Source: a virus (taxonomy: Duplodnaviria > Heunggongvirae > Uroviricota > Caudoviricetes). Taken from it: a DNA stretch of 6,191 nucleotides. This document shows positions 2 through 6,095 of this stretch, one piece after another (position 1 is the first letter of the stretch; each line of letters starts with the position of its first letter). A program made the translations under genes and the position numbers. Where the stretch lies: the IMG/VR virus record IMGVR_UViG_2703718872_000025. One strand, 5' to 3'. The notes below the pieces were generated by a model. It ran no database searches. It was not told the origin of the DNA and worked only from the letters and a program-made list of their open reading frames with translations.

Positions 2-2758
2 GCGGCGAAAACGTCAGAAACGAATGCTTCAGCGTCACAACAATCAGCAGCCACATCTGCATCCACCGCGACCACGAAGGCATCAGAAGCTGCGACCTCG
101 GCCCGGGATGCGGCGGCCTCAAAAGAGGCGGCAAAATCATCAGAAACGAGCGCAGCCTCGAGCGCCAGTAGTGCAGCTTCCTCGGCAACGGCGGCAGGAA
201 ATTCCGCGAAGGCGGCAAAAACGTCCGAGACGAACGCCAGGTCTTCTGAAACGGCAGCGGGACAGAGCGCCTCAGCTGCGGCAGGCTCAAAAACAGCGGC
301 TGCGTCGTCTGCCAGTGCAGCGTCAACAAGTGCCGGGCAGGCCTCAGCCAGTGCCACCGCCGCCGGAAAATCGGCAGAAAGCGCTGCATTGTCCGCTTCA
401 ACAGCCACAACGAAGGCTGGCGAAGCCGCTGAACAGGCCAGCGCAGCAGCGAGGTCTGCATCCGCAGCGAAGACATCCGAAACGAACGCGAAAGCGTCGG
501 AAACCAGCGCAGAATCCTCAAAAACGGCAGCGGCATCGTCTGCCAGTTCGGCGGCGTCATCGGCATCATCTGCGTCTGCTTCAAAAGATGAGGCGACCAG
601 ACAGGCGTCAGCAGCGAAGGGCAGCGCCACGACGGCATCCACGAAGGCGACAGAGGCTGCTGGCAGTGCGACAGCGGCAGCACAGAGCAAAAGTACGGCG
701 GAATCCGCGGCAACGCGCGCCGAGACAGCAGCTAAACGGGCAGAGGATATTGCATCCGCCGTGGCGCTTGAGGATGCAAGTACGACGAAAAAGGGGATAG
801 TACAGCTCAGCAGTGCGACCAACAGTACGTCTGAAACGCTGGCGGCAACGCCAAAGTCAGTAAAATCAGCCTATGACAATGCAGAGAAACGTCTGCAGAA
901 AGACCAGAACGGCGCTGATATACCCGATAAGGGACGCTTCCTGAACAACATTAACGCGGTCAGTAAAACAGACTTTGCTGATAAACGTGGTATGCGTTAT
1001 GTGCGGGTTAACGCTCCTGCAGGTGCAACATCTGGAAAATATTACCCTGTTGTTGTTATGCGTTCTGCTGGCTCAGTAAGCGAACTGGCATCAAGGGTCA
1101 TTATCACCACGGCAACGCGAACCGCAGGCGATCCGATGAATAACTGCGAGTTTAACGGATTTGTTATGCCTGGTGGCTGGACTGACAGGGGGCGTTATGC
1201 TTATGGAATGTTCTGGCAATATCAAAACAATGAACGAGCCATCCACTCAATAATGATGAGTAATAAGGGCGATGATTTGCGCTCTGTGTTCTATGTTGAT
1301 GGCGCTGCTTTCCCTGTTTTTGCGTTTATCGAAGATGGCCTGTCAATATCCGCACCTGGTGCTGATCTCGTTGTTAATGATACGACCTATAAGTTTGGGG
1401 CAACAATTCCAGCGACTGAATGTATCGCGGCGGACGTTATCCTTGATTTTAAGAGTGGGCGTGGTTTTTATGAGTCCCATTCGTTAATCGTTAACGATAA
1501 CTTGTCGTGCAAAAAACTTTTTGCCACAGACGAAATTGTAGCGCGTGGTGGTAATCAGATTCGAATGATAGGTGGGGAGTATGGGGCATTATGGCGTAAT
1601 GATGGCGCTAAAACTTACCTGCTGCTTACCAATCAAGGTGATGTTTATGGTGGCTGGAATACATTAAGACCGTTTGCTATTGATAACGCAACCGGCGAAC
1701 TGGTTATTGGAACCAAACTGTCCGCAAGTCTGAACGGTAACGCATTGACAGCAACAAAGCTGCAAACGCCAAGACTGGTTTCTGGGGTTGAGTTTGATGG
1801 TTCAAAAGATATTACTTTAACCGCCGCGCATGTGGCTGCTTTTGCCAGAAGGGCAACGGATACATATGCCGATGCGGATGGTGGCGTTCCCTGGAATGCC
1901 GAATCAGGCGCTTACAATGTCACCCGCTCTGGCGACAGCTATATTCTGGTTAACTTCTATACCGGAGTCGGAAGTTGCCGGACCCTGCAGATGAAGGCGC
2001 ATTACAGAAATGGAGGTCTGTTCTACCGTTCCTCAAGAGATGGCTATGGTTTTGAGGAAGGCTGGGCAGAAGTTTATACCTCGAAAAATCTTCCACCAGA
2101 AAGCTACCCAGTTGGCGCACCAATTCCGTGGCCATCAGATACCGTTCCGTCTGGTTATGCCCTGATGCAGGGGCAGACTTTTGACAAATCTGCATACCCG
2201 AAACTTGCAGTTGCTTATCCGTCAGGCGTGATCCCTGATATGCGTGGCTGGACGATTAAGGGCAAGCCCGCCAGTGGTCGTGCCGTATTGTCTCAGGAAC
2301 AGGACGGCATTAAATCGCACACCCACAGCGCCAGCGCATCCAGTACGGATTTGGGTACGAAAACCACATCGTCGTTTGATTACGGCACTAAATCTACGAA
2401 TAACACCGGGGCACATACACACAGTGTGAGCGGCTCTACAAACTCGGCTGGAGCACACACACACTCACTAGCCAACGTGAACACGGCTAGTGCTAACTCC
2501 GGTGCTGGTAGTGCATCAACAAGATTGTCTGTTGTGCATAATCAAAACTATGCAACATCATCTGCTGGCGCACATACCCACTCACTGTCCGGCACTGCTG
2601 CAAGCGCAGGTGCACACGCACATACTGTCGGTATTGGTGCTCATACGCACTCGGTTGCGATTGGCTCACATGGACACACCATCACCGTTAACGCTGCTGG
2701 TAACGCGGAAAACACCGTCAAAAACATCGCATTTAACTATATTGTGAGGCTTGCATAA
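2..2758 (+). CDS. stf: Side tail fibre protein Stf, 5-prime partial (true start upstream of window)
   Basis: Frame 2 is open from nt 2 to the TAA at 2756-2758; the ORF-track start at 389 is only an in-frame TTG. Translation shows Ala/Ser/Thr-rich N-terminal repeats (AKTSETNA recurring), a phage-tail-fibre-repeat-like segment ([31 protein letters not shown]) and a C-terminus (GAPIPWPSD...KSHTHS...GAHTHS...[11 protein letters not shown]) that I recognise from memory as the lambda Stf / T4 gp37-type tip. No frameshift interrupts the gene within the window. Confidence 0.92.
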
Positions 2759-3342
2759 TGGCATTCAGAATGAGTGAACAACCACGGACCATAAAAATTT
2801 ATAATCTGCTGGCCGGAACTAATGAATTTATTGGTGAAGGTGACGCATATATTCCGCCTCATACAGGTCTGCCAGCAAACAGTACCGATATTGCACCGCC
2901 AGATATTCCGGCTGGCTTTGTGGCTGTTTTCAACAGTGATGAGGCATCGTGGCATCTCGTTGAAGACCATCGGGGTAAAACCGTCTATGACGTGGCTTCC
3001 GGCGACGCGTTATTTATTTCTGAACTCGGCTCATTACCGGAAAATGTCACCTGGTTATCCCCGGAAGGGGAGTTTCAGAAGTGGAACGGCACAACCTGGG
3101 TGAAAGATGCAGAAGCAGAAAAACTGTTCCGGATCCGGGAGGCGGAAGAAACAAAAAACAGCCTGATGCAGGTAGCCAGTGAGCATATTGCGCCACTTCA
3201 GGATGCTGCAGATCTGGAAATCGCAACGGAGGGAGAAACCTCGTTGCTGGAAGCCTGGAAAAAGTATCGGGTGTTGCTGAACCGTGTTGATACATCAACT
3301 GCACCTGATATTGAGTGGCCTACGAACCCTGTCAGGGAGTAA
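2758..3342 (+). CDS. tfa: Tail fibre assembly protein Tfa (194 aa)
   Basis: ATG at 2758-2760 overlaps the stf stop (TAATG), with GAGG 8 nt upstream; 194 codons ending TAA 3340-3342. Translation [24 protein letters not shown]...[39 protein letters not shown]... closely matches my recollection of lambda Tfa, which is also 194 aa. Confidence 0.92.
3178..3297 (+). repeat. Direct repeat copy A (3-prime end of intact tfa)
   Basis: Aligns without gaps to 4227-4346 with 13 mismatches in 120 nt (~89%), in the same reading frame; similarity stops abruptly on both sides. Confidence 0.85.
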
Positions 3343-3356
3343 TCATTGGGATTATG

Positions 3357-3389
3357 CCGCAGCACGTCTTAAGCAAGAACGTGCTGCGG
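3357..3389. terminator. Stem-loop between convergent tfa and methyltransferase genes; possible weak intrinsic terminator
   Basis: ccgcagcacgtctt (3357-3370), loop aagc, then aagaacgtgctgcgg (3375-3389) gives a 14-bp stem with one bulged A. On the + strand a T6 run (3400-3405) follows about 10 nt later; no U-run follows on the - strand. Non-canonical spacing, hence low confidence. Confidence 0.3.
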
Positions 3390-3396
3390 TTGGATG

Positions 3397-4053
3397 CTAT
3401 TTTTTCCCTGAAGCGGAAAACATTACTACAGTACCTTGAACCTTGGTTTTAACATTCTCGAAATGCTCTGAGAGTATATGTGTTAAGCCTTCTTCGGAAT
3501 CTTTTGTGTTTGAAAAGATGCCTTTCTGATTGTAAATGCGCATCAGTTTTTGACCGAAGCTATTGTGCACAACTCCATCGCCAAGAATTGTGGCTCCGTA
3601 TAGAGTTCCATCGTCAGTTAAGGCCTGCGCCGCATTGCGTATTACACAGCTTTTTGTAGATATATTTCCAGGCAGGCAGTGAAGAAGGTAAAACATGGAA
3701 ATGGAATCAAATTGACCATGTAACGCCGCGGGATAAGGTTCAAAAACATCATGGCTAATTTTATGTTTAATTTTTGATTCCCCAGCCCTTGTAGATGCCG
3801 CGTTCAGGCTAGCTTCGTTCAAATCCATTAAAGATATCAGACTACTCTCAGGTACGTGAGTAAGGTAAAACCCAGTTCCAACACCAATATCCAGATGGTT
3901 GTTACCTAAATGTTCCAGAAAGTGTGGAAGAAGGTGTTCCTTTGTAGGACATCCCCATGCAAGCCGATTTGATACTCCCAAAACCCACCAGTCATAAAGC
4001 TTTAGGGTAAGTGGTGTGTAAATTTTAGCCCCATCATCTGTGTTTTTTTTCAT
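3397..4053 (-). CDS. ybcY: Class I SAM-dependent methyltransferase (Rossmann-fold, small-molecule/protein type), prophage cargo; ybcY-like by genomic context
   Basis: The - strand ORF runs 4065 to 3397 (stop TAG, complement of 3397-3399). Two in-frame ATGs: 4065-4063 with no Shine-Dalgarno, and 4053-4051 preceded by GGTGA at a 5-nt spacing, so I take 4053 as the start (218 aa; 222 aa if 4065 is used). Motif I LDIGVGTG (codons at 3871-3885), acidic residue after the second strand (LMDLNE), motif II-like FDSISMFYLLHCL. Gene symbol is assigned from the tfa / MTase(-) / tfa-fragment synteny recalled for DLP12, not from sequence identity, so treat it as provisional. Confidence 0.75.
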   Translation of the reverse strand: MKKNTDDGAKIYTPLTLKLYDWWVLGVSNRLAWGCPTKEHLLPHFLEHLGNNHLDIGVGTGFYLTHVPESSLISLMDLNEASLNAASTRAGESKIKHKISHDVFEPYPAALHGQFDSISMFYLLHCLPGNISTKSCVIRNAAQALTDDGTLYGATILGDGVVHNSFGQKLMRIYNQKGIFSNTKDSEEGLTHILSEHFENVKTKVQGTVVMFSASGKK

Positions 4054-4121
4054 TAATTTCACCATGTTATAGTTTTATTTGTGAATTAAATCAATTATGG
4101 CGATGAATTACAAGGGGTTAA

Positions 4122-4427
4122 ATGCTGCCGCAGCATAGCGATATTGAAATAGCCTGGTATGCTTCGATACAGCAGGAGCCGAATAGCTGGAAGACCGTCA
4201 CCACACAGTTCTACATCCAGGAATTCAGTGAGTATATTGCGCCACTGCAGGATGCTGTAGATCTGGAAATCGCAACGGAGGAAGAAAGATCGTTGCTGGA
4301 GGCATGGAATAAATATCGGGTATTGTTGAATCGTGTTGATACATCAGTAGCTCTGGGTATGAAGCTGTTTGTAACTCATGTTACAGTAACAGCCATTACT
4401 ATCTCGAAGGTGCAAAATGTATATTGA
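4122..4427 (+). CDS. Tail fibre assembly protein C-terminal fragment (tfaX-like remnant; probably non-functional)
   Basis: 101-codon ORF with ATG at 4122 and AGGGG 5 nt upstream. Only residues ~36-75 ([40 protein letters not shown]) resemble Tfa; the flanking sequence is unrelated. Contains direct-repeat copy B. Confidence 0.5.
4227..4346 (+). repeat. Direct repeat copy B (inside tfa remnant)
   Basis: Partner of 3178-3297; 107 of 120 nt identical, ungapped, same frame. Confidence 0.85.
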
Positions 4428-4554: not shown

Positions 4555-4590
4555 TGCTCCCAATGCAATATATGTTTTGCATTGGGAGCA
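4555..4590 (-). terminator. Probable Rho-independent terminator of the hydrolase gene
   Basis: Perfect inverted repeat gctcccaatgcaa (4556-4568) / ttgcattgggagc (4577-4589) with an 8-nt loop, extendable by one T-A pair. On the - strand it begins 20 nt after the hydrolase stop codon and is followed by the U-rich stretch auauucauauuuuuguuauuc. Confidence 0.45.
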
Positions 4591-4610: not shown

Positions 4611-6095
4611 TTATTGTATTTCTGCTTCAGAATTTCCTGGGCAGTATATATTTTCTATTTTTTGTGGAGTGATCAGGTGATGTACAACTGCTTTATCTAC
4701 ACATAAATTAACTCCGGTGAGAGCTAATGTATGCCCATCACCATTTATTGTTAGTAACGGGCTGGAAAATTTCTCTGCCATCTTACGGGCATTAATCCAG
4801 GGCGTTGTTGGGTCGTATTTGTGTGCTACAAACAGTAAACCAGAGGGCAGAACAGTATTTTTCAGGCGAGTTTTGTTCAGGTCGCTATGTATTGGCCATA
4901 ATTCACAAAAATCAGGTGAATCGGAACGTCCATTGTCAAAGTTAATAGCCGGGAAGGCATTCGCAAGAGCGTCTTTTCGGGATTTTCGCTCTTCTGGTGT
5001 TAATTGCTCATCCCCCTGATCTACACAGAGGATTACCCCCGAAGCATCGCTTGACTCTTCTGAGGCTATCGGAGCACTGAGCGCAGTTTCAATTTCATTA
5101 CTGACAATCCCCTGAGAGAACTGGCGTATGGCAGTTGCAAGGGTTGGCCATGATGAACGCCATAGCAGAAGGTCTGTTGTTAATGATATGAGTTCACCTG
5201 AAGATATATTTTCTCCCTTACTGTCTAATAAAGGTTTGTGATGTAATTTTGATAATAGCTCATGGAAGTGAGTTATTGCCTTATCTCTGTCTGAAGAAAG
5301 CGGGCAACTTTTTGTACGCGCACACCAGGATGCAAAGCGATCAAACGTTTCCTGATAACTCTGTGCCTGTTTGAGTTGCCATGTGAAGTTGTCCTCCAGG
5401 TCATCGATATCGACGACTCCATCAAGAACGATAGATCTTACGTTGTAGGGAAAACGTTCTGCATATAAGGCTGCAATTTGAGTTCCATACGAATACGCCA
5501 CGGCTGTCAGTTGTTTATCCCCCAAGGCTTGCCTAATACGATCAATATCGTATACAGCCTCGTTAGAGCCGATATGGCGAATGACTTCGGCTCCGGTATT
5601 ATGGATACAGGCATTAATTTTATTTAATACTTGTTGCTTTTCGGTTATGTTTTCCTGAGTCTCTGTATCTGATTGCCGGCAGTTTATTGTCGGAGTGGAC
5701 TGTCCGACGCCTCGAGGATCAAATCCAATAATATCCCATGACTCACGAAGATTTGTGACTGGCCAGTCAAAGTTAATATAAGGATTTATGCCTGGTAACC
5801 CGGGACCACCACTTATTATCAGGATACTTCCTTTATGCTTGCTTTTTGCCGGCAATTTTGTCAACGCTAGTTTGACTTGTGATTTTTTTTCATAAGAAGC
5901 ATCTCCGCCTGTGTCTGTATATTTTAATGGAACAGACAAATAACCACATAGTAAGTCAGGAGACGGTTTTTCCTCACCAAACCAGTGGTTGAATTGACTG
6001 GCCATACAGGATTGCCACTGTATCTGCTGGGCAGATACGGTTACTGGTAGAAGTAACGTTAAAACAACTTTGAAATGAGTAATTATTTTTCGCAT
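4611..6095 (-). CDS. Secreted/periplasmic alpha/beta-hydrolase, S33 (prolyl/tripeptidyl aminopeptidase, TAP-like) family serine hydrolase
   Basis: 494 codons from ATG (complement of 6093-6095) to TAA (complement of 4611-4613). N-terminus MRKIITHFKVVLTLLLPVTVSA/QQ looks like a Sec signal peptide with no lipobox. Ordered motifs: IISGGPGLPG (oxyanion-hole region), GFDPRGVGQS, AYSYG nucleophile elbow (Ser codon 5490-5492), then KYDPTTP and GDGHT near the C-terminus as candidate Asp and His of the triad. Confidence 0.85.
   Translation of the reverse strand: MRKIITHFKVVLTLLLPVTVSAQQIQWQSCMASQFNHWFGEEKPSPDLLCGYLSVPLKYTDTGGDASYEKKSQVKLALTKLPAKSKHKGSILIISGGPGLPGINPYINFDWPVTNLRESWDIIGFDPRGVGQSTPTINCRQSDTETQENITEKQQVLNKINACIHNTGAEVIRHIGSNEAVYDIDRIRQALGDKQLTAVAYSYGTQIAALYAERFPYNVRSIVLDGVVDIDDLEDNFTWQLKQAQSYQETFDRFASWCARTKSCPLSSDRDKAITHFHELLSKLHHKPLLDSKGENISSGELISLTTDLLLWRSSWPTLATAIRQFSQGIVSNEIETALSAPIASEESSDASGVILCVDQGDEQLTPEERKSRKDALANAFPAINFDNGRSDSPDFCELWPIHSDLNKTRLKNTVLPSGLLFVAHKYDPTTPWINARKMAEKFSSPLLTINGDGHTLALTGVNLCVDKAVVHHLITPQKIENIYCPGNSEAEIQ

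Follow-up and report, generated by a model that had tools for sequence, protein, structure and literature searches.

A poly(A) run at the start codon of a lambdoid prophage methyltransferase gene as a probable slippage-prone site of gene decay

The locus and its genomic setting

The window analyzed here, a stretch of DNA of 6,191 nucleotides held as IMG/VR virus record IMGVR_UViG_2703718872_000025 (Caudoviricetes), carries on its minus strand an intact methyltransferase gene flanked by tail-fibre genes. The window is 100% identical to Escherichia coli E2865, where it forms the end of the DLP12 (argU-side) lambdoid prophage. The genes there run from side tail fibre through tfa, the oppositely oriented methyltransferase, a 3′ fragment of tfa and a secreted alpha/beta hydrolase to ompT/envY. 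At the same position K-12 has tfaD′-ybcY′-tfaX′-appY-ompT, with the methyltransferase annotated as frameshifted and with appY where the window has the hydrolase downstream of the gene. Because the K-12 site carries the same gene in frameshifted form, the methyltransferase of the window is the intact orthologue of ybcY. The two share about 99% nucleotide identity and the same site beside tfaX/appY/ompT, and the window holds the intact ancestral form. The gene and its immediate surroundings are as follows.

Positions 3397 to 4053, minus strand: class I SAM-dependent methyltransferase of 218 aa, a member of PHROG 2132, intact here and orthologous to the K-12 pseudogene ybcY.
Positions 3166 to 3297, plus strand: 3′ part of tfa (Pfam Caudo_TAP) and left-hand copy of a direct repeat of 132 nt, with 87% identity to positions 4215 to 4346.
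Positions 4215 to 4346, plus strand: 3′ fragment of tfa (a tfaX-like pseudogene, in PGAP an incomplete tail fiber assembly protein) and right-hand copy of the repeat.

The 132-nt direct repeat brackets the methyltransferase cassette, an arrangement that recombination between tfa genes would be expected to leave after inserting a cassette or “moron”. Of 5,426 complete E. coli genomes, 3,838 (∼70%) carry the gene, some in up to four copies. Fourteen isolated lambdoid phages have it too, among them PhiR26_1, Turner, 2G7b, ev243 and Kati. Its placement downstream of a tail-fibre assembly gene recurs in the window, in E2865, in DLP12 of K-12 and in phages 2G7b, ev243, Turner and the PhiR series.

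The methyltransferase

The protein matches PHROG 2132 over its full length (residues 1–218 on profile positions 1–218, E = 7.4e-157), and its only Pfam domains are Methyltransf_12, 23, 25, 11 and 31 and MTS, all of the generic small-molecule type. Motif I (DIGVGTG, residues 55–61) is invariant in an alignment of 37 homologues. An AlphaFold model built on that 37-sequence alignment (pLDDT 90.9) has alternating strand and helix topology, and its matches in the PDB, at a probability of 1.00, place the predicted fold with the class I Rossmann-like methyltransferases. The top fold match is a bacterial phosphatidylethanolamine N-methyltransferase, and the best 50 are lipid, small-molecule, natural-product or uncharacterized SAM-dependent methyltransferases, with no DNA methyltransferase among them. 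By sequence, the closest PDB entries are UbiG and juvenile-hormone acid methyltransferase (E ∼ 1e-3), NCBIfam gives only far-sub-threshold matches (PmtA, RquA and CpaM) and PADLOC gives none above threshold and a single weak one (mad2, E = 0.003). The annotation of the E2865 locus lists no restriction or specificity gene near the methyltransferase. From the domains and the modelled fold, we take the enzyme to be a small-molecule or lipid-type class I SAM methyltransferase and not a DNA methylase. Our literature search on ybcY returned no functional study, only an entry in a promoter table, a mention of gene context and a deletion with no phenotype.

The N-terminus stands apart from this conserved core. 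Residues 1–10 have pLDDT values below 50 in the AlphaFold model and are predicted to be disordered, and residues 2–4 are hypervariable among homologues, which begin MKKN, MKIN, MNKS, MEKN, MTNN, MQNN, MSLD, MKKQ, MNKE and others. Given this variability, the two lysines encoded at codons 2 and 3 of the window gene are not functionally required.

Start codon and upstream elements

The position of the homopolymer within the gene depends on which ATG is used, and two in-frame candidates lie 12 nt apart, together with the following elements.

Positions 4051 to 4053, minus strand: ATG start of the methyltransferase, indicated by orthologue N-termini, the PHROG 2132 profile, alleles that lack the upstream ATG and the K-12 alignment.
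Positions 4063 to 4065, minus strand: in-frame ATG 12 nt 5′ of ATG 4053, the start in the ORF listing and in PGAP (MVKLMKKN, 222 aa), and probably not the real start.
Positions 4059 to 4063, minus strand: GGTGA, read in the sequence 5 nt upstream of ATG 4053, a Shine-Dalgarno-like motif by presumed function.
Positions 4066 to 4094, minus strand: sigma-70 promoter-like element, TTGATT (4094–4089), a spacer of 17 and TATAAC (4071–4066), a hexamer pair published for ybcY and found by eye in the window.

The initial annotation had taken ATG 4053 as the best-supported start, against PGAP and the ORF listing, and four lines of sequence evidence support the view that this is probably the true one. 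The upstream ATG is replaced by ACG in strain U1 and by ATA in L102, both in otherwise intact alleles, and in the U1 allele PGAP itself moves the start to the ATG that precedes the A8 run. Homologues from Citrobacter, Salmonella, Enterobacter, Klebsiella, Yersinia, Pantoea and Erwinia (56–90% identity) nearly all start at the aligned methionine, with a modal length of 218 aa. The PHROG 2132 profile begins at the same residue, and the GGTGA motif is kept in every E. coli allele inspected.

Transcription may begin very close to this codon. The ybcY/tfaX spacer contains a site selected by RpoD holoenzyme in SELEX, TTGATT-17-TATAAC, with an H-NS flag (Shimada et al., 2014; PMC3946193). A generic promoter and terminator scan near the gene returned chance-level matches only, and it overlooked this pair because position 6 of the −10 hexamer is C. 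The published hexamers end 12 nt before ATG 4053, which predicts a leader of about 6–9 nt. The −10 hexamer abuts the upstream ATG, and therefore that codon would lie at or before the 5′ end of the transcript.

The A8 tract and its coding consequences

On the minus strand the gene begins ATG AAA AAA AAC ACA GAT. The plus strand reads gtg TTTTTTTT cat over positions 4040–4053, with the T8 at exactly 4043–4050 and CAT at 4051–4053, within the wider context ctgtg TTTTTTTT cat taatttcaccat; the coordinates and the description given to the tract in the initial annotation are exact. The tract, the stops reached after a change in its length and a second run of the same length are listed here.

Positions 4043 to 4050, minus strand: A8 homopolymer (T8 on the plus strand), made up of codons 2 and 3 (AAA AAA) plus the initial AA of codon 4 (AAC).
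Positions 4002 to 4004, minus strand: TAA stop reached after contraction from A8 to A7, giving a 16-aa peptide, MKKTQMMGLKFTHHLP*.
Positions 4034 to 4036, minus strand: TGA stop reached after expansion from A8 to A9, giving a 6-aa peptide, MKKKHR*.
Positions 5883 to 5890, minus strand: second A8 run, at about codons 69–71 of the neighbouring secreted alpha/beta hydrolase, which serves as an internal control for tract length.

Under a first-order Markov model of the window, 0.53 A/T runs of at least eight are expected per 6.2 kb, with a probability of 0.40 of at least one. Two are present, at 4043–4050 and 5883–5890. The run itself is by this measure statistically ordinary, and what is notable about it is only its position. 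The prediction that a gain or loss of one base would frameshift the methyltransferase is borne out, and because the tract sits at codons 2–4 a slip in it is fully inactivating, with products of 16 aa (A7) or 6 aa (A9). A length change at these codons would switch expression, which is the placement of a contingency locus, and a poly(A) or poly(T) run of at least six in the first few codons is also the arrangement of inlA in Listeria monocytogenes. The 5′ position makes a frameshift maximally inactivating, and it has been argued that selection can favour such placement of a tract (Orsi et al., 2010; PMC2831843).

Tract-length alleles in genomes, phages and metagenomes

Alleles were counted in complete E. 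coli genomes with queries of 73–76 nt, for which only a perfect match reaches the identity band of ≥99%. The counts cover the two commonest 75-nt flank haplotypes, that of the window and GAAATCAATG, and miss variants on rarer haplotypes; as assemblies are consensus sequences, minority tract lengths within a culture are invisible in them. The locus occurs in about 3,612 complete-genome records. ATG followed by A8 accounts for 1,315 records on the window haplotype and for the bulk of the second haplotype, and ATG followed by A7 for 11 and 4 records respectively (15 of ∼3,612, 0.4%); ATG followed by A9 was found in no record on either haplotype. Among 1,241 records of the control run in the hydrolase, three have T7, three from a single strain have T10, and none has T9. 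Variant frequencies at target and control are thus alike (15/3,612 vs. 3–6/1,241; Fisher p = 0.59, or 0.80 with the T10 records), the control being a single locus in fewer genomes than the target, and no excess of length polymorphism over this non-switch repeat was detected (p = 0.59–0.80).

A scan that is independent of tract length (pattern CCCATSATCTGTG-N{5,12}-ATTRATTTCACC) was applied to 120 IMG/VR and 120 metagenome loci. ATG with A8 was found in 111 and 112 of them, respectively (223/240). None of the IMG/VR loci had ATG with A7, which was seen in two of the metagenome contigs (L236 and L341), and no A9 allele occurred among the 240 loci. Alleles in which the start codon is reduced to AT were followed by A8 in one IMG/VR and two metagenome loci, and by A7, the K-12 type, in four of each. 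The run is interrupted in four IMG/VR loci (K3T three times and K2R once) and in no metagenome locus, and these interrupted alleles are intact. Among isolated lambdoid phages, all 14 full-length matches are consistent with A8 and none has a length change at the gene. The tract is nearly monomorphic in these collections, and its variability is no greater than that of an ordinary A8 run.

Beyond E. coli, the run is not maintained. Orthologues in other Enterobacterales lack A8 and begin, for example, ATG AAG AAG CAG in Enterobacter cloacae and ATG AAT AAA GAG in others.

The ATG-A7 alleles lie on at least six distinct 800-nt haplotypes and are labelled by PGAP as frameshifted pseudogenes, so that natural frameshift alleles at the tract have arisen independently, as they have in inlA. 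Two of these haplotypes were each recovered in several independent assemblies (E6, GPEC1201 and GPEC1366; 13E0767 and OkiPb01716). A few A7 singletons are suspected to be errors of assembly: in JL05 the target and control runs are both T7 and both genes are flagged as frameshifted, and 442/2 and OkiPb01716 contain further frameshifted neighbour genes.

Where the gene breaks

The pattern scan yielded 219 complete copies of the gene, 199 of which are intact (∼91%). In this unbiased sample, 11 of the roughly 18 copies with real lesions carry the lesion within the 11 nt made up of the ATG and A8, as copy counts inflated by clonal inheritance. The remaining lesions are one-base losses in short runs at about positions 22, 266 and 543, a one-base insertion in an A6 run at about 649, two deletions of 177–188 bp and two rearrangements. 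Counted as distinct events, lesions are enriched at the junction very roughly 30-fold per nucleotide, in a small sample. The alignment of alleles that had been proposed as a check on whether inactivating changes map to the tract places these 11 of ∼18 lesions at the junction, where K-12 ybcY is also broken. A lesion density of about 30 times at the junction could be read as “designed” mutability.

K-12 itself illustrates the outcome. Its ybcY differs from the window by a single gap in the 751-nt aligned region of gene and flanks, and this gap is a loss of 2 bp at the junction of the ATG and the A run, the G of the start codon and one A (ATG-A8 to AT-A7). The rest of ybcY is a fully open frame with only two missense changes, K10R and F121S, and translation from the upstream ATG would give MVKLIKKHR*. 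The AT-A7 allele occurs in 380 records, mostly laboratory derivatives of K-12 and also wild isolates such as the goose strain L73. The other stages of a start-less series are found as well. AT-A8 is present in 12 records, among them copies in GB089 and CT29 on the K-12 haplotype with identical flanking SNPs, and ATA followed by A8, an A9 run, is present in one record (GPEC1189), whose haplotype is shared with another AT-A8 allele, L159.

These alleles suggest a path in which the start codon would first have mutated from ATG to ATA, creating an A9 run, which would then have contracted to A8 and to A7. We infer this stepwise route as the most parsimonious one for K-12, and favour it because all three stages exist in sequenced strains; it is possible instead that a direct deletion of 2 bp produced the K-12 allele. 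The dominance of A8 in alleles that retain the ATG and the occurrence of lengths 7, 8 and 9 in start-less alleles fit purifying selection on a functional gene, followed by free drift after loss of the start codon.

Interpretation and alternative explanations

We consider it likely that the A8 run acts as a passive, lineage-specific 5′ poly(A) slippage hot spot and is the main site of loss of this gene, and not a programmed switch. The run would be an incidental by-product of the AAA-AAA-AAC codons (Lys-Lys-Asn) in a disordered, hypervariable N-terminal tail. With eight identical bases it is expected to be a hot spot for replication slippage, and the rate of indels in E. coli climbs exponentially with homopolymer length (PMC8510543). 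Rare contraction by one base would create a null allele encoding the 16-aa peptide, and the run and the adjoining start codon would together be the principal place where the gene breaks, with K-12 ybcY at the end of such a path. Of the two roles that the initial annotation had offered for the tract, the route to a pseudogene is supported by the 2-bp loss at the K-12 junction, by A7 on at least six haplotypes, by the start-less series of A9, A8 and A7 and by the share of lesions at the junction. The on/off switch is not supported, given A7 at 0.4%, no A9, a frequency equal to that of the control, orthologues without the run and an enzyme that is not a DNA methyltransferase. As a whole, the earlier proposal is thus partly supported.

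A contingency switch would use slipped-strand mispairing to turn the gene off and on reversibly at a low rate, with the 5′ placement of the tract held by selection. It would draw on the position in codons 2–4, where any change of one base yields a peptide of 6 or 16 aa, on the repeated origin of A7 across at least six haplotypes, on the presence of lengths 9, 8 and 7 in the start-less lineage and on the precedent of inlA with its A7/A6 alleles (PMC2831843). Against these points, off-length alleles make up 0.4% of records, include no A9 and do not exceed the control A8; the run is not conserved in orthologues, where residues 2–4 are free to vary; in all 14 isolated phages the length is unchanged, consistent with A8; interruption of the run (K2R or K3T) leaves the gene intact; and no sign of reversion was found among the assembly alleles. 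We regard a selected switch paralleling that of L. monocytogenes as unlikely, and the specific proposition that A8 genuinely and reversibly turns a prophage lipid or small-molecule methyltransferase ON and OFF at a low rate, in sub-populations at ∼1e-6 to 1e-5, as quite improbable. Slipped-strand contingency switching is, to our knowledge, considered rare in E. coli, and were the switch real, the locus would be an E. coli slipped-strand contingency gene carried on lambdoid phages. Programmed recoding, in which transcriptional slippage or ribosomal frameshifting on the run would make a second product, starts from the general property that A runs of at least eight can cause RNA polymerase to slip and ribosomes to slide. 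Both shifted frames nevertheless end after 6 or 16 codons with no second ORF, and no stimulatory hairpin is predicted downstream, which leaves this reading with a negligible probability; a programmed frameshift or slippage product is effectively refuted by the lack of an alternative ORF.

The run might also be kept for translation, with AAA after the AUG holding the initiation region unstructured and boosting initiation, perhaps on an mRNA with a very short leader, and with mutability as a side effect. Selection in E. coli favours AAA at codon 2 and A-rich ORF starts (PMC2034453; bioRxiv 2021.08.27.457967), the TTGATT-17-TATAAC hexamers imply the predicted leader of about 6–9 nt, and structure prediction shows the initiation region as unstructured. 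Replacing AAA with synonymous AAG shifts the predicted folding by no more than 1.6 kcal/mol, however, and every such variant is still unstructured. Because the region is unstructured whatever the synonymous codons, a role in mRNA structure is unsupported; orthologues use many other codons at these positions and the promoter scan yielded only matches at chance level, and we think selection for translation a very unlikely reason for the run. The last alternative, that the A7 alleles are errors of homopolymer sequencing or assembly and that the tract is truly invariant, is suggested by JL05, with T7 in both runs and both genes frameshifted, and by the other frameshifted neighbours in 442/2 and OkiPb01716. 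Identical A7 haplotypes nonetheless come from different laboratories (E6, GPEC1201 and GPEC1366; 13E0767 and OkiPb01716), A7 also occurs in the metagenome contigs L236 and L341, and hundreds of assemblies agree on the K-12 allele, which makes error highly improbable as a general explanation.

Comparison with known systems

In phasevarions, such as those based on mod in Haemophilus, Neisseria and Helicobacter, the phase-variable enzyme is a DNA N6-adenine methyltransferase that belongs to a restriction-modification system, and its repeat is highly polymorphic. The present locus resembles them in being a methyltransferase ORF with a simple repeat whose change in length would turn the gene off. 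It differs in that the domains and predicted folds of its product are of the small-molecule type and not those of a DNA methyltransferase, and in that its tract is nearly monomorphic. A phasevarion is ruled out, since DNA-methyltransferase domains are absent from the Pfam results and DNA-methyltransferase folds from the best 50 PDB matches.

A closer parallel is inlA of L. monocytogenes, with an in-frame A7 allele, an A6 allele of at least two origins whose product is 8 aa long, and a non-slippery A2GA4 allele (Orsi, Bowen and Wiedmann, 2010; PMC2831843). Both genes have poly(A) in the first codons and alleles one base shorter that truncate the product (at 8 aa in inlA and at 16 aa here). In both, the frameshift alleles have multiple independent origins and interrupted runs are known, A2GA4 in the one and K2R or K3T in the other. 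The two diverge in prevalence and in function: the truncated allele of inlA is common in one lineage, whereas A7 stands here at 0.4% and matches the control, and inlA encodes a virulence adhesin whereas the gene studied here encodes an accessory enzyme of a prophage. The frequency of the inlA A6-to-A7 frameshift, about 5.5e-7, was obtained with reporter fusions (PMC2831843), and the figures for the present locus are allele frequencies in assemblies.

The lysine codons also belong to a broader pattern. AAA at codon 2 and A-richness at the 5′ ends of E. coli ORFs are a general and selected bias (Zalucki et al., 2007; PMC2034453), and A-rich starts are general among E. coli ORFs (Ward and Curran, 2021; bioRxiv 2021.08.27.457967). 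The methyltransferase gene shares this bias, with AAA at codons 2 and 3 and an initiation region predicted to be unstructured. The bias accounts for the frequency of AAA, but not for an uninterrupted run of eight or for the decay of the gene.

Implications

We regard the locus as a further example of the known weak points that homopolymers create at the 5′ ends of genes, with no new regulatory mechanism. The analysis provides an account at base resolution of the pseudogene state of ybcY in K-12, and shows that the intact gene is the norm: ∼91% of sampled complete copies are intact, and the gene is carried by ∼70% of complete E. coli genomes and by viable lambdoid phages. The practical value of these results is modest. 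They correct the annotated start codon, probably to ATG 4053, and offer a case for genome annotation in which homopolymer length, the choice of start by PGAP (the ATG 12 nt upstream, or even an ATT) and “frameshifted” flags interact.

Start-codon-less alleles and pseudogene status

The Prokaryotic Genome Annotation Pipeline (PGAP) calls the start-codon-less alleles of the methyltransferase gene (3397-4053, minus strand) in strains GB089, CT29 and GPEC1189 “intact”, the equivalent region of the window being 4051-4065. For the AT+A8 allele of GB089 and CT29 the pipeline starts the protein at an ATT codon, giving a product of 219 aa (WP_071961356.1), and for the ATA+A8 allele of GPEC1189 it starts at the upstream in-frame ATG. 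Because start-less alleles are rescued in this way, whether the methyltransferase counts as a pseudogene depends on the rules of annotation. The K-12 pseudogene ybcY carries F121S, at a residue conserved in at least 90% of the 37 aligned homologues, a substitution that, as read from the alignment, is consistent with relaxed constraint once the gene had been inactivated.

Possible methyltransferase substrate and cassette slot

Among known structures, the methyltransferase is matched best by 8ys9, a phosphatidylethanolamine N-methyltransferase from bacteria (E=4e-12, TM 0.63-0.66), and PmtA is among its weak NCBIfam matches; a lipid head-group is a conceivable substrate. The gene is flanked by a direct repeat of the tail-fibre assembly gene (tfa):

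3166-3297 and 4215-4346, plus strand: 132-nt direct repeat of tfa 3′ ends, 87% identity

Since this repeat brackets the methyltransferase gene, the sequence suggests entry of the 1-kb cassette via recombination between tail-fibre assembly genes. In other strains the same slot holds a recombinase gene together with ydfK and ynaM.

The hydrolase gene beside ompT

The hydrolase ORF lies between the prophage end and ompT; the ORF, a run within it and a hairpin beyond its stop are:

4611-6095, minus strand: secreted alpha/beta hydrolase ORF, 494 aa (Pfam Abhydrolase_1/4, TAP-like; signal peptide)
5883-5890, minus strand: another A8 run of the window, in frame within the hydrolase ORF (codons ~69-71)
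4555-4590, minus strand: strong terminator-like hairpin with a 14-bp stem, then a T-rich tail TATTCATATT

Whereas K-12 has appY at this place, the strain of the window carries the hydrolase gene instead. In profile searches PHROG 20134 matched across the entire hydrolase, which also matched the PADLOC candidate-defence model C3a206 (E=3e-55). The A8 run within it, used as a control only, showed T7 alleles in 3 of 1,241 records and a T10 (+2) allele in three, from strain UC4224 and its derivatives. The hairpin is situated ~20 nt 3′ of the hydrolase stop codon.

Doubtful open reading frames

Two further ORFs in the window are doubtful:

3315-3452, plus strand: 45-aa ORF, “hypothetical protein” in PGAP (“nucleocapsid protein” in K-12-type records)
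24-800, plus strand: 258-aa ORF rich in Arg, Pro and Gln

The former, which overlaps the tfa stop and runs antisense to the 3′ end of the methyltransferase gene, looks like a spurious call spread by homology. The latter, which reads the Ala/Ser-rich N-terminal portion of the tail-fibre gene (389-2758, plus strand) in another frame, is almost certainly an artefact of composition. The true start of the tail-fibre coding sequence lies upstream of the window.
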